From Deltaproteobacteria bacterium GWC2_65_14 (GTDB lineage: Bacteria; Desulfobacterota; Deferrimicrobia; Deferrimicrobiales; Deferrimicrobiaceae), in NCBI GenBank assembly GCA_001797615.1, contig MGPV01000017.1, positions 50,019 through 114,018 of the forward strand: a DNA stretch of 64,000 nt, in the 5' to 3' direction. Below, piece by piece: positions 7,972 to 64,000 of the stretch (positions are counted from its first letter, which is position 1; each line of letters opens with the position of its first letter). Made by a program: the position numbers and the translations under genes. Under the pieces are notes generated by a model. The model worked only from the letters and a program-made list of their open reading frames with translations. It did not search any database and was not told where the DNA came from.

Positions 7972-8565
7972 ATGAAGCTGATCCGCCCATGCGCCGACGG
8001 GGAAGAGCTGCTGCTCCACATCTGCTGCGGTCCCGACGCAGCCTACGGGGTGCCCGCGCTCCAGGAGCGGTACCGGGTCACCGGGCTCTTCTTCAACCCG
8101 AACATCCAGCCCGGGGACGAGCATGCGCGGCGCCTGCTGGCGGCCCGCCACCTGCGGGAGGCGCTCCCCTTCGCCCTGGAGATCGCGTCCGGGGGCGAGG
8201 AAGAGTGGGAGGAGGCGGTCCGCGGCCTGGAGGAGGAGCCGGAGAAGGGGAAACGGTGCGAGGCCTGCATCCGGCTGCGGCTGCGCAGGACCGCCTCCGA
8301 GGCGAAGCGGCTCGGGGTCCCGAACTTTTCCACCGTCCTCACCGTCAGCCCGAAGAAGGATGCGGCGATGGTGAACCGAGTGGGGTTCGAGGAGGGGGAG
8401 CGGTCGGGGGTCGTTTTCCTGGCGGCCGACATGAAGAAGGGGGACGGCTTTCGCAAGAGCGTGGAGATCTCGAAGCGGCTGGGAATCTACCGGCAGGACT
8501 ACTGCGGATGCCGCTACTCGCTCCGCCCCGCGGGCGCCGAGCCCGGAGTCTCCCCCGCGGACTAA
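7972..8565 (+). CDS. queH: Epoxyqueuosine reductase QueH (DUF208).
   Basis: LLLHICCGPD ... FFNPNIQP ... CxxC (CEACIRLR) ... TTVLTVSPKK ... YRQDYCGCRYS follows the conserved QueH cysteine pattern. Confidence 0.82.
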   Translation: MKLIRPCADGEELLLHICCGPDAAYGVPALQERYRVTGLFFNPNIQPGDEHARRLLAARHLREALPFALEIASGGEEEWEEAVRGLEEEPEKGKRCEACIRLRLRRTASEAKRLGVPNFSTVLTVSPKKDAAMVNRVGFEEGERSGVVFLAADMKKGDGFRKSVEISKRLGIYRQDYCGCRYSLRPAGAEPGVSPAD

Positions 8566-8633: not shown

Positions 8634-8729
8634 TGGCGGAAGCGTGAGGGAATCGAACCCCCCGGAGACATTGCTGCCTCCCGGCCGGATTTGAAGTCCG
8701 GGAGGGCCACCAGCGCCCTATCCGCTTCC
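8634..8729 (-). tRNA. selC: tRNA-Sec (selenocysteine tRNA, anticodon UCA).
   Basis: The reverse complement reads GGAAGCGG...CCGGACTTCAAATCCGG...GGTTCGATTCCC...CGCTTCCGCCA. The anticodon arm CUGGACUUCAAAUCCAG-like is identical in loop sequence to E. coli selC, with anticodon TCA. It has a long variable arm and a ~95-nt length with encoded CCA. Confidence 0.85.
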
Positions 8730-8762: not shown

Positions 8763-8855
8763 GCCCTACTTCTTCGCGGTCTCGCTCGCGCGCTTCTTCC
8801 GGGCCTTCTTCCTCCGGTGCCGGCGGCGCCGGATCTCCCGCTTCCGTTCCGTGGT
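8763..8855 (-). CDS. Candidate 30-aa highly basic small protein (MTTERKREIRRRRHRRKKARKKRASETAKK), immediately upstream of selC.
   Basis: ATG preceded by GAGGTGGAG, with strong third-position GC bias across the Arg/Lys codons. It is below the ORF-track length cutoff. It resembles small ribosomal or THX-like basic peptides, but I have no positive identification. Confidence 0.25.
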
Positions 8856-8923
8856 CATCTCCACCTCGTCCCGATTCCGATATGCGACGCCGGGACAGTA
8901 TACCAGAAGGGAAAGGAGTTCAG

Positions 8924-9691
8924 ATGAGACGATTCGCATGGATTATCGCCGCGGTATTTCTGGCCGCGCCCGCCGCCCCCGCCGCGGCGATGCCGGGGTT
9001 CGAGGCCGGGGTGCGGGGAACCTACTGGTTCCCCGACCTCTCGGCGAAGATCCAGACCTTCGACCCGCCCCCGGCGGGGACGAAGTTCGACGTGAAGGAC
9101 GACCTGGGGGTCGGAGACGAGAATTTGCCCTCCGGGGAGGCGTTCCTCCGGGTCGGGCGGTTTCACCTGAGAGCAGGATTCACCCCGGTTTCGTTCGACG
9201 GGAGCAAGGCGCTGGCGAGGGAGATCGTCTTCAGCGGGCAGACCTTTACGGTCTCCGACACCGTGATCTCGAGCCTGGACATGAAGATGCTCGACGGGGA
9301 GATCCAGGTCGACATCCTCCGCCCGGATCTGGTCGCGGCCAGCTTCTACCTCGGGCTGGTCGGCAAGGTGAAATATGTGGACGGAGAGGTGGAGCTGCGC
9401 GGCAGCGCGGTGACGGAGCGGAAGGACTTCAAGGCCCCGATCCCGATGGTCGGGCTGGCGGCGGGCGCGGGGTTGCTGAAGGACATGGTCCGGATCGACG
9501 CCCGGGCGGCGGGGATGGCCTATTCCGGGAACCACCTGTACGAGGGGGAGGTCTATCTCTCCTTCGCCCCGTTCCCCTTCGTCCGGATCCAGGGGGGGTA
9601 CCGGTGGATCGATCTCCAGGTGGACAAGGACGACGTCGTGGCCGAGCTCACGCTGAAGGGGCCCTACGCGGGGGCACAGATCTCCTTCTGA
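8924..9691 (+). CDS. Putative outer-membrane beta-barrel protein with a signal peptide.
   Basis: AAGGAG RBS 5 nt before the ATG. It has an N-terminal signal peptide MRRFAWIIAAVFLAAPAAPAAA, alternating hydrophobic beta-strand periodicity, and a C-terminal aromatic residue (..AGAQISF). Confidence 0.6.
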   Translation: MRRFAWIIAAVFLAAPAAPAAAMPGFEAGVRGTYWFPDLSAKIQTFDPPPAGTKFDVKDDLGVGDENLPSGEAFLRVGRFHLRAGFTPVSFDGSKALAREIVFSGQTFTVSDTVISSLDMKMLDGEIQVDILRPDLVAASFYLGLVGKVKYVDGEVELRGSAVTERKDFKAPIPMVGLAAGAGLLKDMVRIDARAAGMAYSGNHLYEGEVYLSFAPFPFVRIQGGYRWIDLQVDKDDVVAELTLKGPYAGAQISF

Positions 9692-9744: not shown

Positions 9745-9819
9745 GGGCGCTTAACTCAGCGGTAGAGTGCCACCTTCACACGGTGGAAGTCACAGGTTCA
9801 AATCCTGTAGCGCCCACCA
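9745..9819 (+). tRNA. tRNA-Val (anticodon CAC).
   Basis: GGGCGCTTAACTCAGCGGTAGAGTGCCACCTTCACACGGTGGAAGTCACAGGTTCAAATCCTGTAGCGCCCACCA folds as a cloverleaf with a 7-bp acceptor stem, T-loop TTCAAAT, anticodon loop TTCACAC and encoded CCA. Confidence 0.9.
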
Positions 9820-9880: not shown

Positions 9881-10841
9881 TGACGATCCCCACCCCGGCG
9901 GGGTCCGGCCGCCGCGCGGAGACCTTCCGGAACCCGGCCGTGGAAAGCATCACCGCGATCTCCCCCTCCGTGTAGGATCTGCCCCCCTCGGTCGCCGCCA
10001 CCATGTGGACGGAGAAGAAGGCGGGGCCCGGTGGAGAGGTCTTCCCCTCGTCCAACAGAAACTCCTGCACCGCGACACGCCCCTTGGGCGCCATCGCCTG
10101 GCGCGCCCTCCGGAGAATTCGGATGCACTCCCGTTCGGAGAACGCGTGGAGGATCTGGGAGATCCAGACGAAGTCGTACGGCCCGCCGAGCGGGTCCTTC
10201 AGGAAATCCCCCGCCGCAATCTCCACCTCTCCGGATCTCCCCTTCTCCGACAGGATCCTTCGGGCGATCCGGACCGTCTCGGGCAGGTCGAACAGCGTCA
10301 CCTTCGCCCCGGGGTACCTTACCGCCCATTCGAGGGCGTAGGTCCCCGGGCCGCCTCCCAGGTCCAGGAGGCGCTCCCCCTCCCGCAGCGGGAACTCCCG
10401 CGCGACCTGCGCGGCCCGCTCCCGGGAGTTGTCCTCCATCCCGCGGATGAAGTTCTCCTGCCAGTTCTTCTCCGGGCCCGCTCTTTTCCTCCCCGCCCGG
10501 ATCTTTCTTTCCAGGTCGGTCCATTCTGGCCAGCAGTTACGGTGATGCAGCAGGATCGATCGCTTCGAGAGGGGGCCGTCCGTGAGATACCGGGCCGCGA
10601 GCTTCCCGTTTTCGTACTGCGCACCGTCGCGCTTCAGCAGGCCGACCGCTACCAGGGCGTTCAGGAGGATCGAGAGCCTTCGGGGATCGGCGGACACCGT
10701 TCGCGCGAGCCGGGAGGCGTCGGACGGGCCGGAGGCCAGGGCCGAAAAGACGCCGAGCCGCAGTCCGGTGAACAGGGCCATCGAGCGCTGGTAGCCGTGC
10801 GCGACCTCCATCAACTCCTCAAGCCTTTTCATCGAACCCAT
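9840..10841 (-). CDS. Class I SAM-dependent O-methyltransferase.
   Basis: 333 aa with an N-terminal dimerisation/winged-helix region and the SAM motif LLDLGGGPGTYA, as in the COMT/HIOMT-type O-MTase family. The 9783..11321 plus-strand ORF is an artefact. Confidence 0.75.
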   Translation of the reverse strand: MGSMKRLEELMEVAHGYQRSMALFTGLRLGVFSALASGPSDASRLARTVSADPRRLSILLNALVAVGLLKRDGAQYENGKLAARYLTDGPLSKRSILLHHRNCWPEWTDLERKIRAGRKRAGPEKNWQENFIRGMEDNSRERAAQVAREFPLREGERLLDLGGGPGTYALEWAVRYPGAKVTLFDLPETVRIARRILSEKGRSGEVEIAAGDFLKDPLGGPYDFVWISQILHAFSERECIRILRRARQAMAPKGRVAVQEFLLDEGKTSPPGPAFFSVHMVAATEGGRSYTEGEIAVMLSTAGFRKVSARRPDPAGVGIVTAQAGKKETGRPG

Positions 10842-12291
10842 CGGTGCCCCTCCCCCGCCGTTTTTCCAGCCGGAAGGTCCCCTCCGGCCCGTCCGTCACC
10901 TCGTACCCGGCCTCCCGGATCCCCTCCCGGAGGGCATCCGCCTCGCGGAACTTCCGCTCCTGCCGGAGCCGCCCGCGCCTCCTTGCGAGGTCGGCCACCG
11001 CCTCCGGAATCCCCTCCCGATCCACGGCGCCCGCCTCTTCCCTCGCGGCCTCCGCGGACCGGAGAAGTCCGACCCCCAGCACCGGGTCCCATTCCGCGGC
11101 GAGCTTGCGCAGCGTCCTCCCGGAAAGCCCGGCCCGCGCCGCCTCATGGACGACCCCGAGCGCCTTCGGGGTGTTCAGGTCGTCCCCGACCGCCTCCCGG
11201 AAGCGGCGCCGGAACTCCCCCTCCTCTCCCGGCGCGCCGCTCCCCGCGTCCCCCCCCCGGGCGAACGCCTCCCGAAGTCTTTCCAGCGCCGTCGCGGATG
11301 CCGCTTGCGCCTCCCAGGTGAAGTTCATCGGCGTCCGGTACTGGAGCGTCAGGCAATGATACCGGAAATCGGCCGGGGAGACCCCACGGGCTTCCAGGTC
11401 GTCGAGGGTGTGCTCGTTGCGCAGCGACTTGGACATCTTCCGCCCGTCGACCAGAAGGTGCGCCCCGTGTACCCAGAGGGCGGCGAACCGGCCGCCGGTG
11501 GCCGCCCTCGCCATCGCACGGGAGTTCTCGTGGTGCGGGAAGCGAAGGTCCGAGCCTCCCACGTGGATGTCGAATTCCGGTCCCAGGTACCTCACCGCCA
11601 TCGCCGCGCACTCGATGTGCCATCCGGGCCAGCCGCGGCCCCAGGGGCTCTCCCAGGAGAACTCCCGCCCGGGCTCCGCCGGAAGCCAGAGCGAGAAATC
11701 CTCCGGCCGTTTCTTGCGGAGATGGATCGCGGCGTCGGTCCGGCCGGCCGCCTCCCCTTCCCCCAGCAGGGCCCCGGAGAGCTCTCCGTACCCCGGCGCC
11801 TTCGTCACGTCGAGGTAGAGCCACCCCTTTTCCCCGTAGGTCGCCCCGCGGCGCTCCAGTTCCCGCGCCATCGCGATCATGTCGGGAACGTGGGCGGAGG
11901 CGCGGGGATAGAGGTCGGCGGGGAGGAAGCCCATCCTCCGGCAGTCCCGGAAGAACGCGCCGGTGAAGAAGGCCGCAATCTCCCCGGCCGACTTCCCGGC
12001 CGCGCGGGCGGCGGCGACGACCTTGTCCTCCGCCTCTTCGAGTCGCTCCTGCTGCATGTGCCCCATGTCGGTGACGTTCTGGACGGAAACGGTCCTGAGC
12101 CCGAAGAACCCGAGGGCCCGGACGAGCAGGTCGGTGAGCAGCCAGGTCCGGAGATTCCCGATGTGGACATACCGGTAGACGGTGGGTCCGCAGGTGTAGA
12201 TCCCCGCCCGCCCCGGTCTCATCGGAACGAACGGAACCTTCTTTCGCGAGCAGCTGTCGTAGAGAGCGATCAGCGCGGGCCTCCCGGGCAT
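10819..12291 (-). CDS. cysS: Cysteinyl-tRNA synthetase.
   Basis: Class I aaRS with IYTCGPTVYRYVHIGN (HIGH region) and KMSKSLRN (KMSKS), and a DALR-like C-terminal domain. Confidence 0.9.
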   Translation of the reverse strand: MPGRPALIALYDSCSRKKVPFVPMRPGRAGIYTCGPTVYRYVHIGNLRTWLLTDLLVRALGFFGLRTVSVQNVTDMGHMQQERLEEAEDKVVAAARAAGKSAGEIAAFFTGAFFRDCRRMGFLPADLYPRASAHVPDMIAMARELERRGATYGEKGWLYLDVTKAPGYGELSGALLGEGEAAGRTDAAIHLRKKRPEDFSLWLPAEPGREFSWESPWGRGWPGWHIECAAMAVRYLGPEFDIHVGGSDLRFPHHENSRAMARAATGGRFAALWVHGAHLLVDGRKMSKSLRNEHTLDDLEARGVSPADFRYHCLTLQYRTPMNFTWEAQAASATALERLREAFARGGDAGSGAPGEEGEFRRRFREAVGDDLNTPKALGVVHEAARAGLSGRTLRKLAAEWDPVLGVGLLRSAEAAREEAGAVDREGIPEAVADLARRRGRLRQERKFREADALREGIREAGYEVTDGPEGTFRLEKRRGRGTDGFDEKA

Positions 12292-26835: not shown

Positions 26836-27789
26836 ATGATGAAACGCGTCGCCTACGTCTATCACCCCGACTATCTCCTGCACGTTCCCCCCTTCGAGCA
26901 TCCGGAATCCCCCGAGCGGCTCGCCGCCATCCACGGGCACCTCGAAACGGTCGGTCTGACATCCCTGCTGCTCCCGACGACCCCGGACTATTCGGAGGAC
27001 GGGGAAATCCTCCGGGTCCACGACCCGGCATACCTCCGGAGGCTGGAGATGGCCTGCCGCCGGGGCGATCTGACGCTCGACGCCGAGGACACCTACATCG
27101 ACAAGAACTCCTATGCGATCGCCCTCCTCTCGGCGGGCGGCTCGATCGCCGGCGCAGACGCGGTGGCTTCCGGAAGGGCGGACCGGGCCTTCTGCGCAGT
27201 CCGGCCGCCGGGCCATCACGCGACGCGGACCGAGGGGATGGGATTCTGCCTCCTGAACAACATCGCCATTGCCGCCCGGCACCTCCAGGCGAGGCACGGA
27301 TTCGCCCGGGTGATGATCGTGGACTGGGACGTTCACCACGGCAACGGGACGCAGGACATCTTCCTCGAGGACCCTTCCGTCTTCCTCTTCAGCATCCACG
27401 AGAACCCCTCCTTCCTCTACCCGGGCACGGGACGCCGCTGGGAGACCGGGAAGGGGGCGGGAGAGGGAACGATCCTGAACGCTCCGATGCCCCCCGGTGC
27501 GGGGGACGACGAGTACCGGCTGGCCTTCGAGCAGCTGCTCGCGCCGGCCGTGGAGCGGTTCCGCCCCGAGATCCTCCTCCTCTCCGCCGGGTTCGACGCC
27601 CACCGGGACGACCCCCTCTCGCACCTCCAGCTGACCGGGGAAGGGTTCCGGTTCATGACCCGCTTCGTGGTGAGGCTGGCCGAAGCCTATTGCGGGGGAA
27701 GGATCGTCTCCATACTCGAGGGGGGATACGAGCCGCGATCGCTCACCCTTTGCACCGAGATCCACCTTCGGGAACTGCTGGCGGACTGA
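26836..27789 (+). CDS. acuC: Histone deacetylase-family enzyme (AcuC / acetoin-utilisation protein / acetylpolyamine amidohydrolase-like).
   Basis: Start MMKRVAYVYHPDYLLH. It has the HDAC zinc-site motifs (..CAVRPPGHHA.., ..MIVDWDVHHGNGTQ.., ..LLLSAGFDAHRDDPL.. and EGGY). Confidence 0.85.
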   Translation: MMKRVAYVYHPDYLLHVPPFEHPESPERLAAIHGHLETVGLTSLLLPTTPDYSEDGEILRVHDPAYLRRLEMACRRGDLTLDAEDTYIDKNSYAIALLSAGGSIAGADAVASGRADRAFCAVRPPGHHATRTEGMGFCLLNNIAIAARHLQARHGFARVMIVDWDVHHGNGTQDIFLEDPSVFLFSIHENPSFLYPGTGRRWETGKGAGEGTILNAPMPPGAGDDEYRLAFEQLLAPAVERFRPEILLLSAGFDAHRDDPLSHLQLTGEGFRFMTRFVVRLAEAYCGGRIVSILEGGYEPRSLTLCTEIHLRELLAD

Positions 27790-27813: not shown

Positions 27814-28473
27814 ATGTACGTCGCCAGAAGGATGCACCGAAACGTCGTCACGGCATCCCCCGGAGACTCCCTCCGGGAGGCCCGCGAGAGGATGCAGAGG
27901 AGGAATGTCCGCCAGCTGCCGGTCGTCTCCGCCGACGGGACGCTTGTGGGGATCCTCTCCGACCGCGACATCCGGGAGGCAATCCTCCCGGTCCGTTTCC
28001 TGCCGGGAACGACGGAGGAGGATCTGGAACGGATGCTCTCGGAGACCCCCGTCGAGAGGGTGATGACGCGGAAGGTGGTCACCGCGACGCTGCACGACGC
28101 CCTGGAGGACGCCATTGTCCTGCTCGCCGACTTCCGGGTGAACTCCCTGCCGGTCGTGGACGGAACGGGAAGGCTGGCCGGAATCCTCACCCGCGGGGAC
28201 GTTCTTCGGGCCTGCATCCAGGCGATGGGGGTCGGGGAGATCAGCTCCCGCCTCGAGGTCCTGGTTCCGGACAGGCCCGGGGCGCTCGCGGATGTCGTGG
28301 CGATCATCAAGACCTTCCACGTGAACATCATTACGGTCCTGACCGCAGGCCCCGCGGGGGCGGGGATGCGGACGATCTACTTCCGGTTGAGCACGCTGAA
28401 CGTGGCGCCGATCCGGAAGGCGATCGAGGAGGCGGGGTTCCGGGTTCTCGACCCGGGCTCCTTCATGCCGTGA
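27814..28473 (+). CDS. acuB: CBS-pair plus ACT domain protein (AcuB-like).
   Basis: 219 aa with two CBS domains (VRQLPVVSADGTLVGILSDRDI and VNSLPVVDGTGRLAGILTRGDV) and a C-terminal ACT-like domain. It is immediately downstream of the acuC-like gene, mirroring Bacillus acuBC. Confidence 0.75.
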   Translation: MYVARRMHRNVVTASPGDSLREARERMQRRNVRQLPVVSADGTLVGILSDRDIREAILPVRFLPGTTEEDLERMLSETPVERVMTRKVVTATLHDALEDAIVLLADFRVNSLPVVDGTGRLAGILTRGDVLRACIQAMGVGEISSRLEVLVPDRPGALADVVAIIKTFHVNIITVLTAGPAGAGMRTIYFRLSTLNVAPIRKAIEEAGFRVLDPGSFMP

Positions 28474-33888: not shown

Positions 33889-34287
33889 TTGGATGCCCTG
33901 ATCGACAGGATTCTTTCCGACAGCCGGACGATCGCCGTGGTGGGACTCTCGGAGAAACCGGAGCGTCCGAGCCACGGTGTGGCCCGCTATCTCCAGGAAC
34001 GGGGATTCCGGATCATCCCGGTGAACCCCAAGGTCCGGGAGGTCCTGGGGGAGAAGGCCTACCCCTCGCTCCGGGAGATCCCCGGAACGGTCGACCTCGT
34101 CGACGTGTTCCGGAGGCCGGAGGAGGTGGTTCCGGTCGCCGAGGAGGCGATCCGGATCGGGGCGAGGTTCTTCTGGATGCAGGAAGGCGTCACGAACCGC
34201 GAAGCGGAGGAGATGCTGGCGGGCGCCGGGATTCCCGTGGTCGCAGACCGGTGCGTGAAACAGGAGCTCGCGAAGCGGGGCAGATGA
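33889..34287 (+). CDS. CoA-binding domain protein (YccU/YneT family).
   Basis: 132 aa with IAVVGLSEKPERPSHGVARYLQERGFRIIPVNPK, typical of the CoA_binding_2 family. Confidence 0.78.
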   Translation: MDALIDRILSDSRTIAVVGLSEKPERPSHGVARYLQERGFRIIPVNPKVREVLGEKAYPSLREIPGTVDLVDVFRRPEEVVPVAEEAIRIGARFFWMQEGVTNREAEEMLAGAGIPVVADRCVKQELAKRGR

Positions 34288-43888: not shown

Positions 43889-46465
<2,577 letters not shown>

Positions 46466-46696
46466 TCCTTCCTCTCCTTGTTGTGTGATGAACGCCGTGA
46501 CGGGGGGATCTCCCCCGGAATCCGGACGAAAACGGAACGAAACCGTGCGCCGCAGGTTCCTGCCGGGCACATTAAACCGTCCTTGAATACCACGACTCCC
46601 CCCCACCGTCAAGGGGAAAACCGGCCGCCCAGACCCATTCCCGATGGAGCACACTCCGCGAAGGATGCCGGAGAGGGACCCCGGCTCGCGGGGGAG

Positions 46697-46809
46697 GGTC
46701 CCCGGTTGCCGGCGGAGCTGCCGCAGGAGGGGGGATGAGCGGAGATAAAAAGATTGATCCGCGGGCGGAGGGCGGGCGAAGCGAAGCCCCCCTCCGAGGC
46801 GGCGGAGCC
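46697..46809. repeat. ~113-nt intergenic repeat, copy B (upstream of dusB), homologous to copy A at 32040..32159.
   Basis: GGTCCCCGGTTGCCGGCGGAGCTGCCGCAGGAGGGG...GCGAAGCCCCCCTCCGAGGCGGCGGAGCC, with the same termini and orientation as copy A. Confidence 0.55.
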
Positions 46810-46866
46810 CTCTCCGGAAACCCACGAGACGGGGGCAGCGGCGCGGCGGAGTGATATAGTTGGGGG

Positions 46867-50390: not shown

Positions 50391-53090
50391 CTACCCGTAC
50401 TCCTTCGCCAGATCCTCGAACCGGGTGTAGCGGGAGATGAAGGCGAGCTCCACGACCCCCATCGGGCCGTTGCGCTGCTTGCCGATGATCACCTCGGCCT
50501 TCCCCTTCTTTTCCTCCGGGGTGTCCTCCTTCTCGTACATCTCCTCCCGGTAGATGAAGAGGATCAGGTCTGAATCCTGTTCAATTGCCCCCGAATTGTG
50601 TGAAACGACTCCGTCCGCCAGCCAGGAGGAAGGACCCGGGACGGTCAGGTCGAATACCTCCTCGGCTCCGTCCGGCCGAAGATCCGTCACACGGTCCCAG
50701 AACAGGTCGCTGGAGGCGGACCGCAGCAGCGGCTCGTCGTCCAGGATATTCGCATATTCCGCCAGCAGGGTCCGCGACGGGGCGAAATCGAGCTGCCCGC
50801 CCCCTCCGTACGCGGTACCCCGGAGCGCCGCCATATCGCGATGGGAGATCCCCCGAGCCGCCATGGCCGCCTTCACCTGGAGGAACGCCTCTTTCGGCAA
50901 CGTGTCGACATTGGGGTTGGATTCCACGAAGGCCAGTTCATTCCACAGTTGGTCCGCGGGCGCCATGCGCGGTCCGAACGCCCCCACCGTCTCGAGGAAC
51001 CGCTTCTGCTGGTCGGCGTCGGACACATCCACGGTGTACACAGGTCGGTAGTTTCCCTTCCGCACGACCCGGATCCTTGCCACGATCCCAAGCCGCACCA
51101 GCAGCGCCGCCACGTCGAGGGCGAGCCCTTCGCTCGAGGTGCTGAAGTAGACCCGCGACGATCCCTTCGCCCCCCTCGGTCGACAGTAAATGCTCCCGTC
51201 CGTCGCCCACAAATGTCTCAACAACGACGAGACCTGCTCATTATCGAACCGAAAGATCTCGGCGGGGAGCCGCTTTTCGTGAGATCGATGCCCGAAGATC
51301 CCCAATTTTCGCAGCCAGCGATTCACCCCCGCAGGATGCCACCGGTTTCCGTTCCCCCTGATGAAAAGCTGGTGCCAGTTTCCGCGCCCGCGGTAGCGGG
51401 TCACCTTCACGCCGAACTCTCTTCGCGCCGCCCCTTCGACGGCGAGGCTGTTCTCTTCCGAAGCGGTTGTGTACCGAAGAGACTGCCCGATAAGATAACT
51501 GCCGTCCCCAACGAGATGCCCCAACAGGGCGATCCGGTCCTCCGGCCAACGGACCGTGTCCCTCGGCTCCGGAACGTGTCGCGCGATGGCTATCCTGTCC
51601 CCCGGTGCGAGATCCGCCACACGCACCCAGCCGTCGGAACCGAACAACCGATGGTCGGCCGTGGCGCGTATCGTGCGGCCGCTGGCCACGGTGACCCGGG
51701 TGACCGGCCTCTCCCCGACCGACCAGACGCAATCGCTTTTCGCGGGGACGATCCGTCCTTCCGGCGACATGGCCCAGACCTCCACCGGTTTCCCGACCAA
51801 GGACCGTATCGGCGCACGGCTTCCGTCGGTGGCGAGAACAAGCGTGTCTCCCGTCACGCACTCCCTCAGGTCCGCCAACTGGGGCCGCTTGTTCTCCCGG
51901 GACTCCACCCCCCGGTTCAGCTGGGAGATCGCGATGACCGGGACGTTGATCTCCTTCGCGAGCGCCTTGAGGGAGCGGGAGATCTCGGAGATCTCCTGCA
52001 CCCGGTTCTCGTAGCCGCCGCGCGAAGAGCCTCCCCGCATCAGCTGCAGGTAGTCGACGATGACCAGCCCGATGCCCCTGTCCTTCTTCAGGCGGCGCGC
52101 CTTCGCCCGCAGCTCGAGGGCGGTGAGCGCCCCGGAGTCGTCGGTGTAGACCGGCGCCTCGGAGAGCCTCCCCACGGAGGCGACGATCCGGTTGATCTCG
52201 TCCTGGGTCAGGTACCCCGTGCGCAGCCGCTGGAACTCGACCCGCGCCTCGGAGCAGATCATCCGCAGCGCGAGCTGCTGGCGGCTCATCTCGAGGGAGA
52301 AGATCGCCACCGGGACCTTGCTCCGGAGGGCGGCGTTCAGCGCGACGTTCAGGCAGAGGGCGGTCTTCCCCATCCCGGGGCGGGCGGCGACGACGATCAT
52401 GTCGGAATTCTGGAAGCCGGCGGTCTTCGCGTCGAGGTCCCGGAAGCCGGAGGGGATCCCGGTGATCATCTCCTTCTTCTCGTAGAGCTTCTCGATCTCC
52501 TTCATCGCCTCCTTGCTCATCTCGGACATCGAGTAGTAGGAGGGCTTGATCTTCTCTTCCGCGATCTCGAAGATCGCCTGCTCGGTCCGGTCGAGGAACT
52601 CGTCGAGCTCGGTCACCCCCTCGTAGGCGGAGGCGGCGATCTGCTGGGAGACCGCGATCGTCTTCCGCAGGATCGCCTTTTCCTTGACCAGCCGCGCGTA
52701 GTCCGCCGCGTTCGAGATGGTGGGCACGTTGTGGATCAGCTCGGAGAGGTAGGCGACTCCCCCCGCCTCCTTTTCCCCGCCGCGCCCCTTCAGCACATCG
52801 GCGATCGTGAGCGGGTCGATCGCCCGCCCGCGCTCGTAGAGCTCCAGCATCGCGGAAAACAGGTTCCGGTGGGCTCCCTGGTAGAAATCCTCCGGCCGGA
52901 GGATCTCCACCACGCCGTTCATCCGGTCGTTGTCCAGCAGGACGGCGGCGAGAACGGCCTGTTCCGCCTCCAGGCTGTGCGGGGGGACTTTCAGCAGGGG
53001 GACGTCCACCGCCGGATACGGGGGTACATGCGTTCCGCTCATCGGCACCTCCCTGCACTCCCCGCGGTCCGGTCGATGGACCGCGGCCAA
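50391..53090 (-). CDS. dnaB: Replicative DNA helicase DnaB containing an in-frame intein (899-aa precursor).
   Basis: The N-terminal DnaB domain and RecA-like helicase core (Walker A ARPGMGKTA; ISQLNRGVESRENKRPQLADLRE) are followed, after the intein, by the C-extein SGAIEQDSDLILFIYREEMY. The probable real start is MSGTHVPP. My hand count of homopolymer runs near the start disagrees with the ORF track; I defer to the track. Confidence 0.9.
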   Translation of the reverse strand: MAAVHRPDRGECREVPMSGTHVPPYPAVDVPLLKVPPHSLEAEQAVLAAVLLDNDRMNGVVEILRPEDFYQGAHRNLFSAMLELYERGRAIDPLTIADVLKGRGGEKEAGGVAYLSELIHNVPTISNAADYARLVKEKAILRKTIAVSQQIAASAYEGVTELDEFLDRTEQAIFEIAEEKIKPSYYSMSEMSKEAMKEIEKLYEKKEMITGIPSGFRDLDAKTAGFQNSDMIVVAARPGMGKTALCLNVALNAALRSKVPVAIFSLEMSRQQLALRMICSEARVEFQRLRTGYLTQDEINRIVASVGRLSEAPVYTDDSGALTALELRAKARRLKKDRGIGLVIVDYLQLMRGGSSRGGYENRVQEISEISRSLKALAKEINVPVIAISQLNRGVESRENKRPQLADLRECVTGDTLVLATDGSRAPIRSLVGKPVEVWAMSPEGRIVPAKSDCVWSVGERPVTRVTVASGRTIRATADHRLFGSDGWVRVADLAPGDRIAIARHVPEPRDTVRWPEDRIALLGHLVGDGSYLIGQSLRYTTASEENSLAVEGAARREFGVKVTRYRGRGNWHQLFIRGNGNRWHPAGVNRWLRKLGIFGHRSHEKRLPAEIFRFDNEQVSSLLRHLWATDGSIYCRPRGAKGSSRVYFSTSSEGLALDVAALLVRLGIVARIRVVRKGNYRPVYTVDVSDADQQKRFLETVGAFGPRMAPADQLWNELAFVESNPNVDTLPKEAFLQVKAAMAARGISHRDMAALRGTAYGGGGQLDFAPSRTLLAEYANILDDEPLLRSASSDLFWDRVTDLRPDGAEEVFDLTVPGPSSWLADGVVSHNSGAIEQDSDLILFIYREEMYEKEDTPEEKKGKAEVIIGKQRNGPMGVVELAFISRYTRFEDLAKEYG
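50595..51860 (-). mobile_element. DnaB intein (422 aa) with a LAGLIDADG homing-endonuclease domain.
   Basis: Begins CVTGDTLVLATDGS (block A). It has two LAGLIDADG-like motifs (LLGHLVGDGSY and LWATDGSIY) and ends ...VVSHN followed by the +1 Ser. The insertion is at the classic DnaB-b site (LRE/SGAIEQD). I checked that the Cys1 codon (TGC) sits at 51858-51860. Confidence 0.85.
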
Positions 53091-58515: not shown

Positions 58516-61134
58516 TCAGGCAGGTCCGCGGAACCGGAACCCGGAGGCTTCGTCCGGATCCACAAGAACGGCGTCTCCATCCGAAAATTCCCCCTTGAGG
58601 ATGCGGAGAGCCAGCGGGTCCTCGAGATGCTTCGCGATCGCCCTCCGCAGCGGCCTCGCGCCGAAGGTAGGATCGTACCCAAGCTCCGCGATCCTCTCCC
58701 TGGCGGCATCCGAGAGCTCGACGGTGATCTTCCGGTCGGCAAGACGGGCGTTGAGCTCCCGGAGCATGATCCCAACGATCCGCGCAAGCTCCCCCTTTCC
58801 CAGGGAGCGGAACAGGACGATCTCGTCGATCCGGTTCAAAAATTCCGGGCGGAATTCCCGGTGCAGCTCCTCCATCACCTTCTCCCGGATCGCCTCCTCA
58901 CCCGTCCCGTAGAGCTCCCGGATCCAGTGCGATCCGACGTTCGAGGTGAGGATCGCCACGGTGTTCCGGAAGTCGACGGTCCGTCCCTTCCCGTCGGTGA
59001 GCCGGCCGTCCTCGAGGACCTGCAGGAGGAGGTTGAAGACGTCCCGGTGCGCCTTTTCGATCTCGTCGAACAGGACGACGGTGTACGGCTTCCGCCGGAC
59101 CGCCTCGGTCAGCGCCCCGCCCTCCTCGTACCCCACGTACCCGGGGGGCGCGCCGATCATCCGGGCGACCGAGTGCTTTTCCATGTACTCGGACATGTCC
59201 AGTCGGACCATCGCCGCCTCGTCGTCGAAGAGAAACTGGGCAAGCGCCCGCGCCAGTTCCGTCTTGCCGACCCCGGTCGGCCCCAGGAAGAGGAACGACC
59301 CGATCGGCCGTCTCGGGTCCTTCAGCCCGGACTTCGCCCGCCGGACGGCGTTCGAGACGAGCCGGACCGCCTCGTCCTGCCCCACGACCCGCTCGGCGAG
59401 CCGTTCCTCCATCCGGAGCAGCTTCTCCACCTCCGCCTCGACCAGCCGGGAGACCGGGATGCCGGTCCACCGGGAGACGACCTGGGCGATATCCTCCTCG
59501 TCCACCTCCTCCTTCAGGAGGCGCCCCTCCGCTTTGGGGGGGACACTCCTGTTCCCATCGGCGAGAAAACCAGGAGTGTCCCCCCGCAGGGCTTCCGCCT
59601 CCCGCTGCAGCGCCGGAAGGATGGAATACTTCAGCTCCGAGGCCCGCTCGAGGTTTCCCTCCCGCTCCGCCCGCTGCATCTCGGAGAGCGCCCGCTCGAT
59701 CCTCTCCTTCACCTCGCGGCTCTTCCCGATCGACCGCTTCTCCTCCTCCCAGCGGGAACGAAGCTCACCGGCCCTCCCGGAGAGCCGGGAAAGCTCCTCC
59801 TCGATACGCGCCAGCCGCTGGGCGGAGACCGGGTCGGTCTCCTTCGTGAGGGCCTGCTTTTCGATCCGGAGCTGGGTGATCCGCCGCTCCACCTCATCGA
59901 TTCCGGTCGGGACGGAGTCGATCTCGATCTTGAGTTTCGAGGCCGCCTCGTCCATGAGGTCGATCGCCTTGTCCGGCAGAAAGCGGTCGGGGATGTACCG
60001 GTGGGAGAGGGTGGCGGCGGCGACGAGGGCGGAATCCTTGATCCGCACGCCGTGGTGGACCTCGTATCGCCCTTTCAGCCCCCGCAGGATGGCGATCGCG
60101 TCCTCCACGGAAGGCTCCGGGACCATGACCGGCTGGAAGCGCCTCTCCAGCGCCGCGTCCTTCTCCACGTGCTTCCGGTACTCGTCGAAGGTGGTCGCGC
60201 CGACGCAGCGGAGCTCGCCCCGGGCCAGGGCGGGCTTGAGCATGTTCGAGGCGTCCATCGCCCCTTCCGCCTTCCCGGCCCCCACCAGGGTGTGGAGCTC
60301 GTCGATGAAGAGGACGACCCTCCCCTCCGCCGCGGCGATCTCCTTGAGGACCGCCTTGAGCCGGTCCTCGAACTCACCCCGGTACTTCGCCCCGGCGATC
60401 AGCGCCCCCATGTCCAGCGCCAGCACCCGCTTGTCCCGAAGCCCCTCCGGGACATCTCCCGAGACGATCCGCTGGGCCAGCCCTTCCGCGATGGCGGTCT
60501 TCCCCACCCCCGGGTCGCCGATCAGAACGGGGTTGTTCTTGGTCCGCCGCGACAGGACCTGGATCACCCTGCGGATCTCGTCGTCCCTCCCGATGACGGG
60601 GTCGAGCTTTTCCCGTCGGGCCAGCTCCGTCAGATCCCGGCAGTACTTGTCGAGGGCCTGGTACTTTGCCTCCGGGTTCTCGTCGGTGATTCGCTGCGTC
60701 CCCCGGATTCCGGTCAGGGCCGACAGCAGCGCCTCGCGGTTCGCCCCGTGCTTCCGGAGCAACCCCTCGATCTTCCCCCCCTCCGCGGCCATCGCGAGGA
60801 GGAAGTGCTCGGCGGAGAGAAACTCGTCCTTGAAGGCGTCCGCCTCGGACATCGCACGGGAAAAGAGCGGCTCCATCCGGGGGGAGAGCCCCCGGCTCAC
60901 CGCGCCGGTGACCTTCGGGAAGGACGCGGCCATCGAGGCCGCGTCGGATTCGAGGGAAGGCAGCGCCACCCCGGTGCGCGCGAAGAGGTCCCGGGCAACC
61001 CCGCCCTCCTGCCGGAGCAGCGCGAGGAAGAGATGCTCCGGCTCCACCTGGGCGTGCGCCTCGCCGGAGGCGATGCGCACCGCCTCCTGCAGCGCCTCCT
61101 GCGATTTGACGGTGAGCTTGTCGAGAGAGATCAT
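58516..61134 (-). CDS. clpB: Chaperone ClpB (Hsp104-type disaggregase; two AAA+ modules plus coiled-coil M-domain).
   Basis: 872 aa with NBD1 Walker [12 protein letters not shown]2 Walker [10 protein letters not shown], a coiled-coil M-domain and the sensor-2 GARPLRRAI. There is a ~13-aa insertion relative to E. coli ClpB near the M-domain/NBD2 junction (see findings). Confidence 0.92.
59536..59585. repeat. Palindromic hairpin element GGGGGGACACTCCTG-N19-CAGGAGTGTCCCCC (copy 2), embedded in-frame within clpB.
   Basis: Read directly: a perfect 14-bp stem with a 19-nt loop. It matches the intergenic copy at 31963..32007 in arm sequence and loop length, and in about half of the loop positions. 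Confidence 0.55.
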
Positions 61135-62635: not shown

Positions 62636-63117
62636 GCCTTCTTTCCTCCTCCGCCCAGTCCGCCCCCGGGCCCGGACACCACAGAATTCACCGCGGCCAC
62701 GTAGGCCATCCGCAGGTGGTACAGCCCCTCCGTGAGGACACTCTTCTCCTCATCGTCGAGATTCCCCTTCGTCTTGGCCTGCAGGACCTCGAGCATGTCG
62801 ATCGATTCCTTCGCCGCCGGAAGGTCCACCGGGGAGCGGGTGCCGTCCCGGGACTGCACCAGCCCCAGGTTCACCATCGTCCCCATCTGCAGCGTCATCA
62901 CGAGGTCGTTGAACGTCGGGCCCGCGATGGACGACCCGGAGTCGCCGGGGCGTTTCTCCCCTTGGACACCGGCCGGGCCCGGACGGTTCCCGGGTTCCCG
63001 CTTCGGACCCGGCGAGTCCGGAGCCGCGGCGGCCTTCGGCTCCTCCGGCTTGGGCTCCTCCTTCTCCACGCCGCGCTTGTCCACCACCCGGAATCCCTTC
63101 GGTTCCTGATCGGCCAT
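62632..63117 (-). CDS. DUF1844-domain hypothetical protein.
   Basis: The probable start is [15 protein letters not shown]. It has a low-complexity Pro/Glu/Lys linker and a conserved C-terminus [18 protein letters not shown]...[16 protein letters not shown]. Confidence 0.5.
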
Positions 63118-64000
63118 CAGGCAGGCACCCCCTGCAATGTCACGACCACCCCGCCGTCCCGCTCCTCCACGAAGAAGTGGTCGGATTCCTTCCATTGAAG
63201 CGTGATCGGCATCTTCACCATCTCGTCGATATGCCGCTTGAGGAACCGCGCCCCGTACTTCACGCTGAACCCGGAGCGGGAGAGGACGTCCAGCGCCCCG
63301 TCGGACACGGCAAGCGTCTTTCCCGCCCCGGCCATCGTCTTCCGGATCGTGGCGAGATAGAACTCGGCGATCCGCCGGACCTCCTCCGAGGAAAGGGGGG
63401 AGAAGACGATGACGTCGTCGAGCCGGTTGATGAACTCGGGGCTGAACCGGTGCTCCACCGCCTTCAGGATGTTTTTCCGAATCGGCTCAAAGTCCTCGCT
63501 GGAGGTGAATCCCAGCGGGCGGGTCAGCTTCCCGATCTCATCGGCCCCCAGGTTGCTCGTCATGATGACGATCGCGTCCGAGAAGTAGACCTTCTTCCCG
63601 CGGCCGTCCGTAAGCCAGCCTTCGTCGAAGACCTGGAGGAAGAGGTTGTGGACGAAGGAGTCGGCCTTCTCGATCTCGTCGAGCAGGACGACGGTGTAGG
63701 GGTCGTCCCGGAGCTGGTTCGTCAGGATCCCTCCCCGCTCCGACCCGACGATCCCCCGGGGCATCCCGATCAGCTTGTCCACGGAAAGCGCCCCGTCCCG
63801 GTACTCGGACATGTCGACCCGCACCATGTGGCGATCGTCCCCGAACAGGTAGTCGGCGAGAGCCTTCGCCATCTCGGTCTTCCCCACCCCGGTGGGGCCG
63901 AGGAAAAGGAGCACCCCGTCCGGGCGGAAGGGGTTTTCCTTGAGCGGCCCCTTGTTCAGCCGCAGCGCCTTCGCGACGGCCCGGATCGCTTCGACCTGCC
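63117..64000 (-). CDS. ClpA/ClpC-family AAA+ ATPase, 3' portion (D2 module). The gene start lies beyond the window end.
   Basis: In-frame translation continues upstream of the first Met (..[30 protein letters not shown]..). It has the D2 Walker A, Walker B VVLLDEIEKA, sensor-1 TSN and a GARFLKRHI sensor-2-like region. Confidence 0.75.
   Translation of the reverse strand, partial: QVEAIRAVAKALRLNKGPLKENPFRPDGVLLFLGPTGVGKTEMAKALADYLFGDDRHMVRVDMSEYRDGALSVDKLIGMPRGIVGSERGGILTNQLRDDPYTVVLLDEIEKADSFVHNLFLQVFDEGWLTDGRGKKVYFSDAIVIMTSNLGADEIGKLTRPLGFTSSEDFEPIRKNILKAVEHRFSPEFINRLDDVIVFSPLSSEEVRRIAEFYLATIRKTMAGAGKTLAVSDGALDVLSRSGFSVKYGARFLKRHIDEMVKMPITLQWKESDHFFVEERDGGVVVTLQGVPA

Follow-up and report, generated by a model that had tools for sequence, protein, structure and literature searches.

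An intact, conserved selC gene for tRNA-Sec in an uncultured bacterium related to Candidatus Deferrimicrobium (MBNT15)

Introduction

Does the tRNA-like gene on the minus strand of a public metagenome-assembled genome (MAG) of an uncultured lineage encode a genuine selenocysteine (Sec) tRNA, and, if so, does its host read UGA as Sec? The gene lies in a 64-kb stretch of DNA, hereafter the window, of the MAG Deltaproteobacteria bacterium GWC2_65_14, which comes from groundwater of the Rifle aquifer and represents a relative of Candidatus Deferrimicrobium (MBNT15). Three proteins encoded in the window are identical to OGP35104.1, OGP35111.1 and OGP35148.1 of this MAG, where they belong to a 123-kb contig; the same window DNA is also present in an ENA re-assembly of a Rifle sample and in a JGI metagenome, and a search of the literature returned no paper naming GWC2_65_14. 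The genes selC and selB are reported as co-occurring signatures of the Sec trait (PMC1273633). The initial annotation had recognised a selC gene in the window, from which it concluded that the organism decodes UGA as Sec, and had seen neither sel genes nor obvious selenoprotein genes around it.

Identity and fold of the tRNA

Three tRNA genes are called in the window by ARAGORN. One of them, on the minus strand at 8634..8729, is a tRNA-SeC (anticodon tca) and lies exactly where selC had been placed, without mention of a strand, by the initial annotation. The Rfam tRNA-Sec model RF01852 matches the same strand at 8638..8729 over model positions 1-91 of 91, with 74.4 bits against a gathering score of 47 and an E-value of 2.1e-13, computed over the whole window and 4227 Rfam families, and the match is retained after clan competition against the general tRNA model. 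The covariance model and ARAGORN both give Sec as the isotype. The RNA, GGAAGCGGAUAGGGCGCUGGUGGCCCUCCCGGACUUCAAAUCCGGCCGGGAGGCAGCAAUGUCUCCGGGGGGUUCGAUUCCCUCACGCUUCCGCCA, is 96 nt long including the encoded CCA and ends in G-CCA, and the locus is a genuine, intact selC gene of Sec isotype (Table 1).

Table 1. Coordinates of the tRNA-Sec gene, its structural parts and its neighbours in the window
Feature	Position	Strand	Basis and remarks
tRNA-Sec (selC), 96 nt including CCA	8634..8729	-	ARAGORN tRNA-SeC(tca); RF01852 74.4 bits vs GA 47
Acceptor stem, 5' strand, nt 1-8, GGAAGCGG	8722..8729	-	pairs with 8638-8645
D arm, nt 11-27: 6-bp stem, one bulged G, 4-nt loop UGGU	8703..8719	-	Rfam alignment
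Anticodon arm, nt 29-45: 5-bp stem, loop CUUCAAA	8685..8701	-	ARAGORN, Rfam; 13-mer as in E. coli selC
Anticodon UCA, nt 36-38, reads UGA	8692..8694	-	ARAGORN anticodon position 36
Long variable arm, nt 49-66: 7-bp stem, GCAA (GNRA) tetraloop	8664..8681	-	ARAGORN drawing
T arm, nt 68-84: 5-bp stem (one G.U), loop UUCGAUU	8646..8662	-	fold and comparison
Acceptor stem, 3' strand (8638-8645), discriminator G73 (8637), encoded CCA (8634-8636)	8634..8645	-	
queH (epoxyqueuosine reductase), convergent with tRNA-Sec	7972..8565	+	Pfam PF02677, 8e-54; conserved neighbour in L061 and L065
TIGR04219-like outer-membrane beta-barrel protein, divergent from tRNA-Sec	8924..9691	+	NCBIfam 2e-21, below cut-off; gene call in L001; conserved neighbour in L061 and L065
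tRNA-Val	9745-9819	+	
cysS, full-length CysRS, 2 kb from tRNA-Sec	10819-12291	- (same as tRNA-Sec)	TIGR00435, DALR and CysS_C

Three proteins recognise particular parts of tRNA-Sec: G73 together with the long variable arm is used by SerRS, the D arm by SelA, and the acceptor/T domain of 13 positions by SelB. Both SerRS identity elements, the long variable arm (7 bp and GCAA) and G73, are found in the window tRNA, and G73 is shared by 103 of the 103 bacterial tRNA-Sec genes from reference genomes with which it was compared. The D arm typical of bacterial tRNA-Sec, with a stem of 6 bp and a loop of 4 nt, is likewise present in the Rfam alignment and in the variants described below; specifically, the stem consists of A11-U27, three G-C pairs, one C-G pair and, after the bulged G16, C17-G22, which closes the loop. 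The acceptor stem pairs nt 1-8 with nt 85-92 through seven Watson-Crick pairs and a non-canonical G8.A85 as the eighth, and only 2 nt (AU) link it to the D stem. Of the 13-bp acceptor/T domain expected in the 8/5 arrangement, all 8+5 positions are there at the right spacing, but 8:85 is G.A and 69:83 is G.U. The odd eighth pair is not unusual, since this pair is non-Watson-Crick in 36/103 of the bacterial tRNA-Sec genes, with G.G in 28 of those 36. The UCA anticodon sits in the 7-nt loop drawn by ARAGORN. Apart from these two positions, the window tRNA bears the hallmarks of a bacterial 8/5 tRNA-Sec, and the features on which the initial annotation relied, namely a length of about 96 nt, an extended acceptor stem (seven Watson-Crick pairs and G8.A85), a long variable arm and an encoded CCA, are all borne out.

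The comparison with E. coli K-12 selC points in the same direction. The 13-mer GGACUUCAAAUCC in the anticodon arm is identical in the annotated K-12 gene, as had been claimed for the anticodon loop, and the two genes share the 5' GGAAG and the 3' CUUCCGCCA, G73, a long variable arm, a 4-nt D loop, the encoded CCA and the length class (96 nt in the window, 95 nt in E. coli). In contrast to the E. coli gene, the window gene has G.A instead of C-G as the eighth acceptor pair, a bulged G in the D stem, C.C at the place of a sixth anticodon-stem pair, and a variable arm made of a 7-bp stem with a GNRA tetraloop, and it adjoins no known integration island.

A serine-inserting opal suppressor, in other words a tRNA derived from tRNA-Ser that bears the anticodon UCA and reads UGA generally through EF-Tu, would share G73 and the long variable arm as SerRS identity elements, and the non-Watson-Crick eighth pair would allow the acceptor stem to be read as 7 bp. 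However, on this 7/5 reading the acceptor stem would be 3 nt away from the D stem, the D arm, with its 6 bp and 4-nt loop, belongs to the Sec type, and the Rfam clan competition favours tRNA-Sec over the general tRNA model. Moreover, G8-C85 is restored in two of the listed lineage variants, and a G.G eighth pair is common to many Desulfobacterota tRNA-Sec genes. Lastly, TGA is the commonest stop among the window gene calls, so that general suppression of UGA would not be tolerable. A suppressor of the 7/5 Ser type is therefore unlikely, and we give this reading hardly any weight beside a tRNA-Sec.

Neighbourhood of the gene

Genes were called by third-position GC content, and about 63 products were compared with Pfam or NCBIfam. 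Besides the neighbours in Table 1, the tRNA-Sec gene is accompanied by an O-methyltransferase gene and by a cluster of NifS, NifU, Nfu and TlpA-like genes, and simple scans beside it found no promoter-like and no terminator-like site. Upstream of the tRNA, a 30-aa Arg/Lys-rich ORF, MTTERKREIRRRRHRRKKARKKRASETAKK, occupies 8766-8858 on the same strand and stops 36 nt before the tRNA 5' end; it is preceded by a GAGGTGG ribosome-binding site, and G or C closes 29/30 of its codons. This ORF has no NCBIfam match and is missing in the two closest relatives (L061 and L065, see below), whose spacers measure just about 90 nt. The ORF could encode a small basic protein of the ribosome-associated type co-transcribed with selC, or be spurious.

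The presence of cysS within 2 kb of the tRNA-Sec gene, on the same strand, led to the consideration of look-alikes of another identity, namely selC*-type tRNA-Cys(UCA) and allo-tRNAs. According to Mukai et al. (PMC5389517), selC* tRNA-Cys has U73 and an 8/4 branch and often precedes selB* and a shortened cysS*, selC* tRNAs with a dedicated CysRS* have A1:U72, and allo-tRNAs have a 12-bp acceptor branch of 8/4 or 9/3; tRNAs of these kinds occur in uncultured delta-proteobacteria and score as false positives for tRNA-Sec (PMC5389517). The window tRNA resembles them in its tRNA-Sec-like cloverleaf, where both the variable arm and the D stem are long, in its UCA anticodon, which these tRNAs may also have, and in its uncultured delta-proteobacterial host. 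Conversely, it has G73 in place of the CysRS-type discriminator U73, and G1:C72 rather than A1:U72, and its acceptor of 8 positions and its T stem of 5, which is closed by a canonical 7-nt loop, give 8+5 positions rather than a 12-bp 8/4 or 9/3 branch. Furthermore, CysRS* lacks the anticodon-binding domain, whereas the CysRS of the window is full length, carries DALR and CysS_C, and passes the equivalog cut-off of TIGR00435 with a match that spans positions 2-461 of 466; neither a selB* downstream of the tRNA nor any SelB-like gene is found in the window, and no selB* or cysS* is linked to the tRNA. On these grounds a selC*-type tRNA-Cys or an allo-tRNA was rejected as highly improbable, and the gene is again best read as a tRNA-Sec.

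Other parts of the window carry unrelated features. The replicative helicase gene dnaB (50391-53090, minus strand) is split by an intein that includes a homing-endonuclease domain of the LAGLIDADG type, recognised by the Pfam families Intein_splicing and LAGLIDADG_3 and present in locus L125 too. The longest ORF of an H+-translocating pyrophosphatase gene (43889-46825, minus strand) has about 220 residues ahead of the Pfam domain, which reflects either a true start further downstream or an unusual N-terminal extension. Two ClpB/Clp-ATPase paralogues (58516-61134 and 63117-64000, both on the minus strand) enclose a DegP gene and a DUF1844 gene, and, past the window end, they are followed by genes for DnaJ, two HSP20 proteins, DnaK and an M48 peptidase, making up a heat-shock gene cluster.

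Conservation among relatives

A pattern scan of reference genomes yielded 120 tRNA-Sec loci, among which, as far as listed, the two closest to the window are those of a Candidatus Deferrimicrobium sp. MAG (L061, candidate phylum MBNT15) and of a groundwater MAG (L065). In both, the tRNA-Sec gene lies between a gene for an outer-membrane-protein-like product and queH, as in the window, and it is 91-92% identical to the window gene, whereas identity is about 70% in the genes on either side and the spacers between them are unalignable. In the Deferrimicrobium MAG, the tRNA-Sec 3' end is separated from queH by an additional 2.4 kb or so of DNA (L061, 1462-3828), which encodes a 639-aa fibronectin-type-III repeat protein and in which neither an integrase nor a sel gene was seen; it marks a variable spot directly downstream of selC.

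The tRNA-Sec genes of the Desulfobacterota or 'delta-proteobacteria' (L006-L124) share with the window gene a D arm with 7 nt opposite 6 nt and the loop UGGU, the anticodon arm, the T loop UUCGAUU, G73 and, frequently, a non-Watson-Crick eighth acceptor pair. Unlike them, the MBNT15 lineage has a variable arm about 2 nt shorter (96 nt overall instead of 98 nt) and a T stem of GGGGG/CCCUC or GUGGG/CCCUC, where the Desulfobacterota have GUGGG/CCCAU.

Contigs with the lineage-specific 5' half of the tRNA-Sec number more than 120 in JGI data (a lower bound; L128-L247) and come from many sediment, soil and groundwater metagenomes, and the MBNT15-type selC is environmentally widespread. The listed contigs, the window and the two related genomes together comprise 23 sequence variants, of which 21 derive from contigs, one is the window's own, and one is unique to the Deferrimicrobium MAG; the exact sequence of the window tRNA recurs on one listed contig (L188). 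Because MAFFT puts the D arm and the variable arm out of register from one clade to the next in a 105-sequence alignment (A1), a column-wise count of covariation was given up in favour of position-based counts and an ungapped alignment of the lineage (A3). In the latter, 95% of the stem cells of the 23 listed variants are paired, while control structures shifted by 1-3 columns pair in 46-59% of cells. The cells of the D stem are paired in 100% of cases. Positions 1-45 are largely fixed by the search pattern in this set, and information on variation comes solely from 11:27 and from the 3' half.

Double-sided changes are found at two pairs of the 23 listed variants, 11:27 (AU/GU/GC) and 55:60 (AU/GC), and the change from AU to GC at 55:60 occurs in 9 of them and is never one-sided. 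The other changes in the variable arm are all exchanges of G-C and G.U, and its loop is always of the GNRA type (GCAA, GAAA or GCGA). Pair 8:85 is G.A or G.G in 21/23 and G-C in 2/23, and 69:83 is U.U in 15/23 of the listed variants, and these are the two weak points of the lineage tRNA-Sec.

These data bear on whether the gene is a relic, that is a tRNA that was kept while selA, selB and selD were lost and UGA ceased to be read as Sec. A relic is expected to decay, yet the match of 74 bits is full length, the gene exceeds its flanks by far in conservation when related genomes are compared, and its changes are compensatory or wobble only. As the gene is kept above its flanks in the relatives, and as its stems change only by compensatory or wobble substitutions, it carries the signature of selection for the fold, and a working gene is favoured over a decaying relic.

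sel genes and selenoproteins

What a relic would have in its favour is the absence of partners nearby. The window had been described as devoid of sel genes, and this description holds: none of the about 63 products compared with Pfam or NCBIfam has a SelA, SelB-wing or SelD (AIRS) domain, and tblastn with E. coli SelA, SelB and SelD finds no match in the window. More broadly, a search for selA, selB, selD and selenoprotein genes was negative in the 64-kb window, in 2 kb of left flank and in 8.6 kb of right flank, where the DNA carries heat-shock and regulator genes only. It was equally negative in the metagenome contigs of the lineage that surround selC (561 kb, 120 contigs listed), and no sel genes adjoin selC in L061 and L065.

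Among the loci fetched, selA, selB or selD is adjacent to selC only in alpha-, beta- and gamma-proteobacteria, Rokubacteria and Eremiobacterota, and most Desulfobacterota loci are also free of adjacent sel genes. The survey shows that selC is unlinked from sel genes in the MBNT15 lineage, as in most Desulfobacterota loci fetched, and this lack of linkage is therefore uninformative on the relic question. A protein-database search with a Rokubacteria SelA as query gave 8000 matches, and none of the best 120 was named GWC2_65_14; the organism names given for these were Rokubacteria/Methylomirabilota or generic. In view of the conservation described above, a relic or orphan selC is a decidedly improbable reading of the window gene.

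Selenoprotein genes were sought by scans for in-frame TGA codons that required coding-type GC3 on both sides, over at least 30 and then at least 20 codons per side, and no candidate was upheld in the window after the two scans, in agreement with the earlier impression that no obvious selenoprotein gene is present. The sole serious candidate, the TGA at 27787-27789 (plus strand), was rejected as the stop of an HDAC/AcuC-like gene; it is followed by a AAAAGGAG ribosome-binding site and then by the ATG of a CBS-CBS-ACT gene (27814-28473) in the same frame. The minus strand has a paralogue of this CBS-CBS-ACT gene, which extends from 16148 to about 16800. The remaining matches were discarded as non-coding frames or normal gene ends, such as the stop of a CoA-binding protein gene at 34285. 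Three redox-type motifs had been singled out as using Cys, and they do: WCPPC of the TlpA-like AhpC/TSA-redoxin protein (15247, plus strand), WCPQC of a lipoprotein with the lipobox VSAGC (34903, plus strand), and the CxxC of Nfu, which reads CSGC.

Outside the window, two formate dehydrogenase alpha subunits are listed for SHF-111, a relative from MBNT15 (PMC9386147 supplement), whose genome paper does not mention selenium (PMC9386147). Subunits of this kind are likely selenoprotein candidates.

Discussion

The best explanation of the locus, to which we assign a probability of about 0.9, is a functional selC gene of an uncultured bacterium related to MBNT15/Deferrimicrobium, represented by the Rifle MAG GWC2_65_14. 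That the organism decodes UGA as Sec, as initially proposed, is well supported and very probable on the comparative sequence data, and this view is strengthened by the purifying selection and the compensatory changes seen in the lineage. In the predicted pathway, SerRS would charge the transcript with serine through G73 and the long variable arm, and SelA would turn Ser into Sec with selenophosphate made by SelD, reading the 6-bp D stem and the 4-nt D loop. SelB, reading the 13-position acceptor/T domain, would then bring the Sec-tRNA to UGA codons that are followed by a SECIS hairpin. The genes selA, selB and selD and those for the selenoproteins would be located elsewhere in the genome.

The two weak points of the fold suggest a further reading, in which the tRNA-Sec of the MBNT15/Deferrimicrobium lineage is either an orphan or structurally deviant, as the eighth pair is almost never Watson-Crick and the T stem usually has U.U. 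If the lineage had no selA, selB and selD, it would hold an orphan selC kept for another role, such as Ser insertion at UGA; if the machinery were present, the tRNA would be a structural variant with altered discrimination between EF-Tu and SelB. There is only a slim chance that this reading is correct, and a functional tRNA-Sec of the ordinary kind is preferred.

The conservation of the gene in the relatives makes it a real but textbook feature rather than a discovery: the window selC, from a publicly available MAG whose lineage is uncultured, is a canonical, already-known kind of feature, and it introduces no new mechanism and raises no new question. Its value is mainly practical, because genomes that carry selC probably also contain some few genes whose in-frame UGA is mis-called as a stop, typically those of formate dehydrogenase alpha subunits and redox proteins, and its annotation calls for corresponding caution. 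For the biology of the group, the gene would extend the Sec-decoding trait to MBNT15/Deferrimicrobium, an uncultured lineage with a tRNA-Sec that is widespread in metagenomes from sediment and groundwater.
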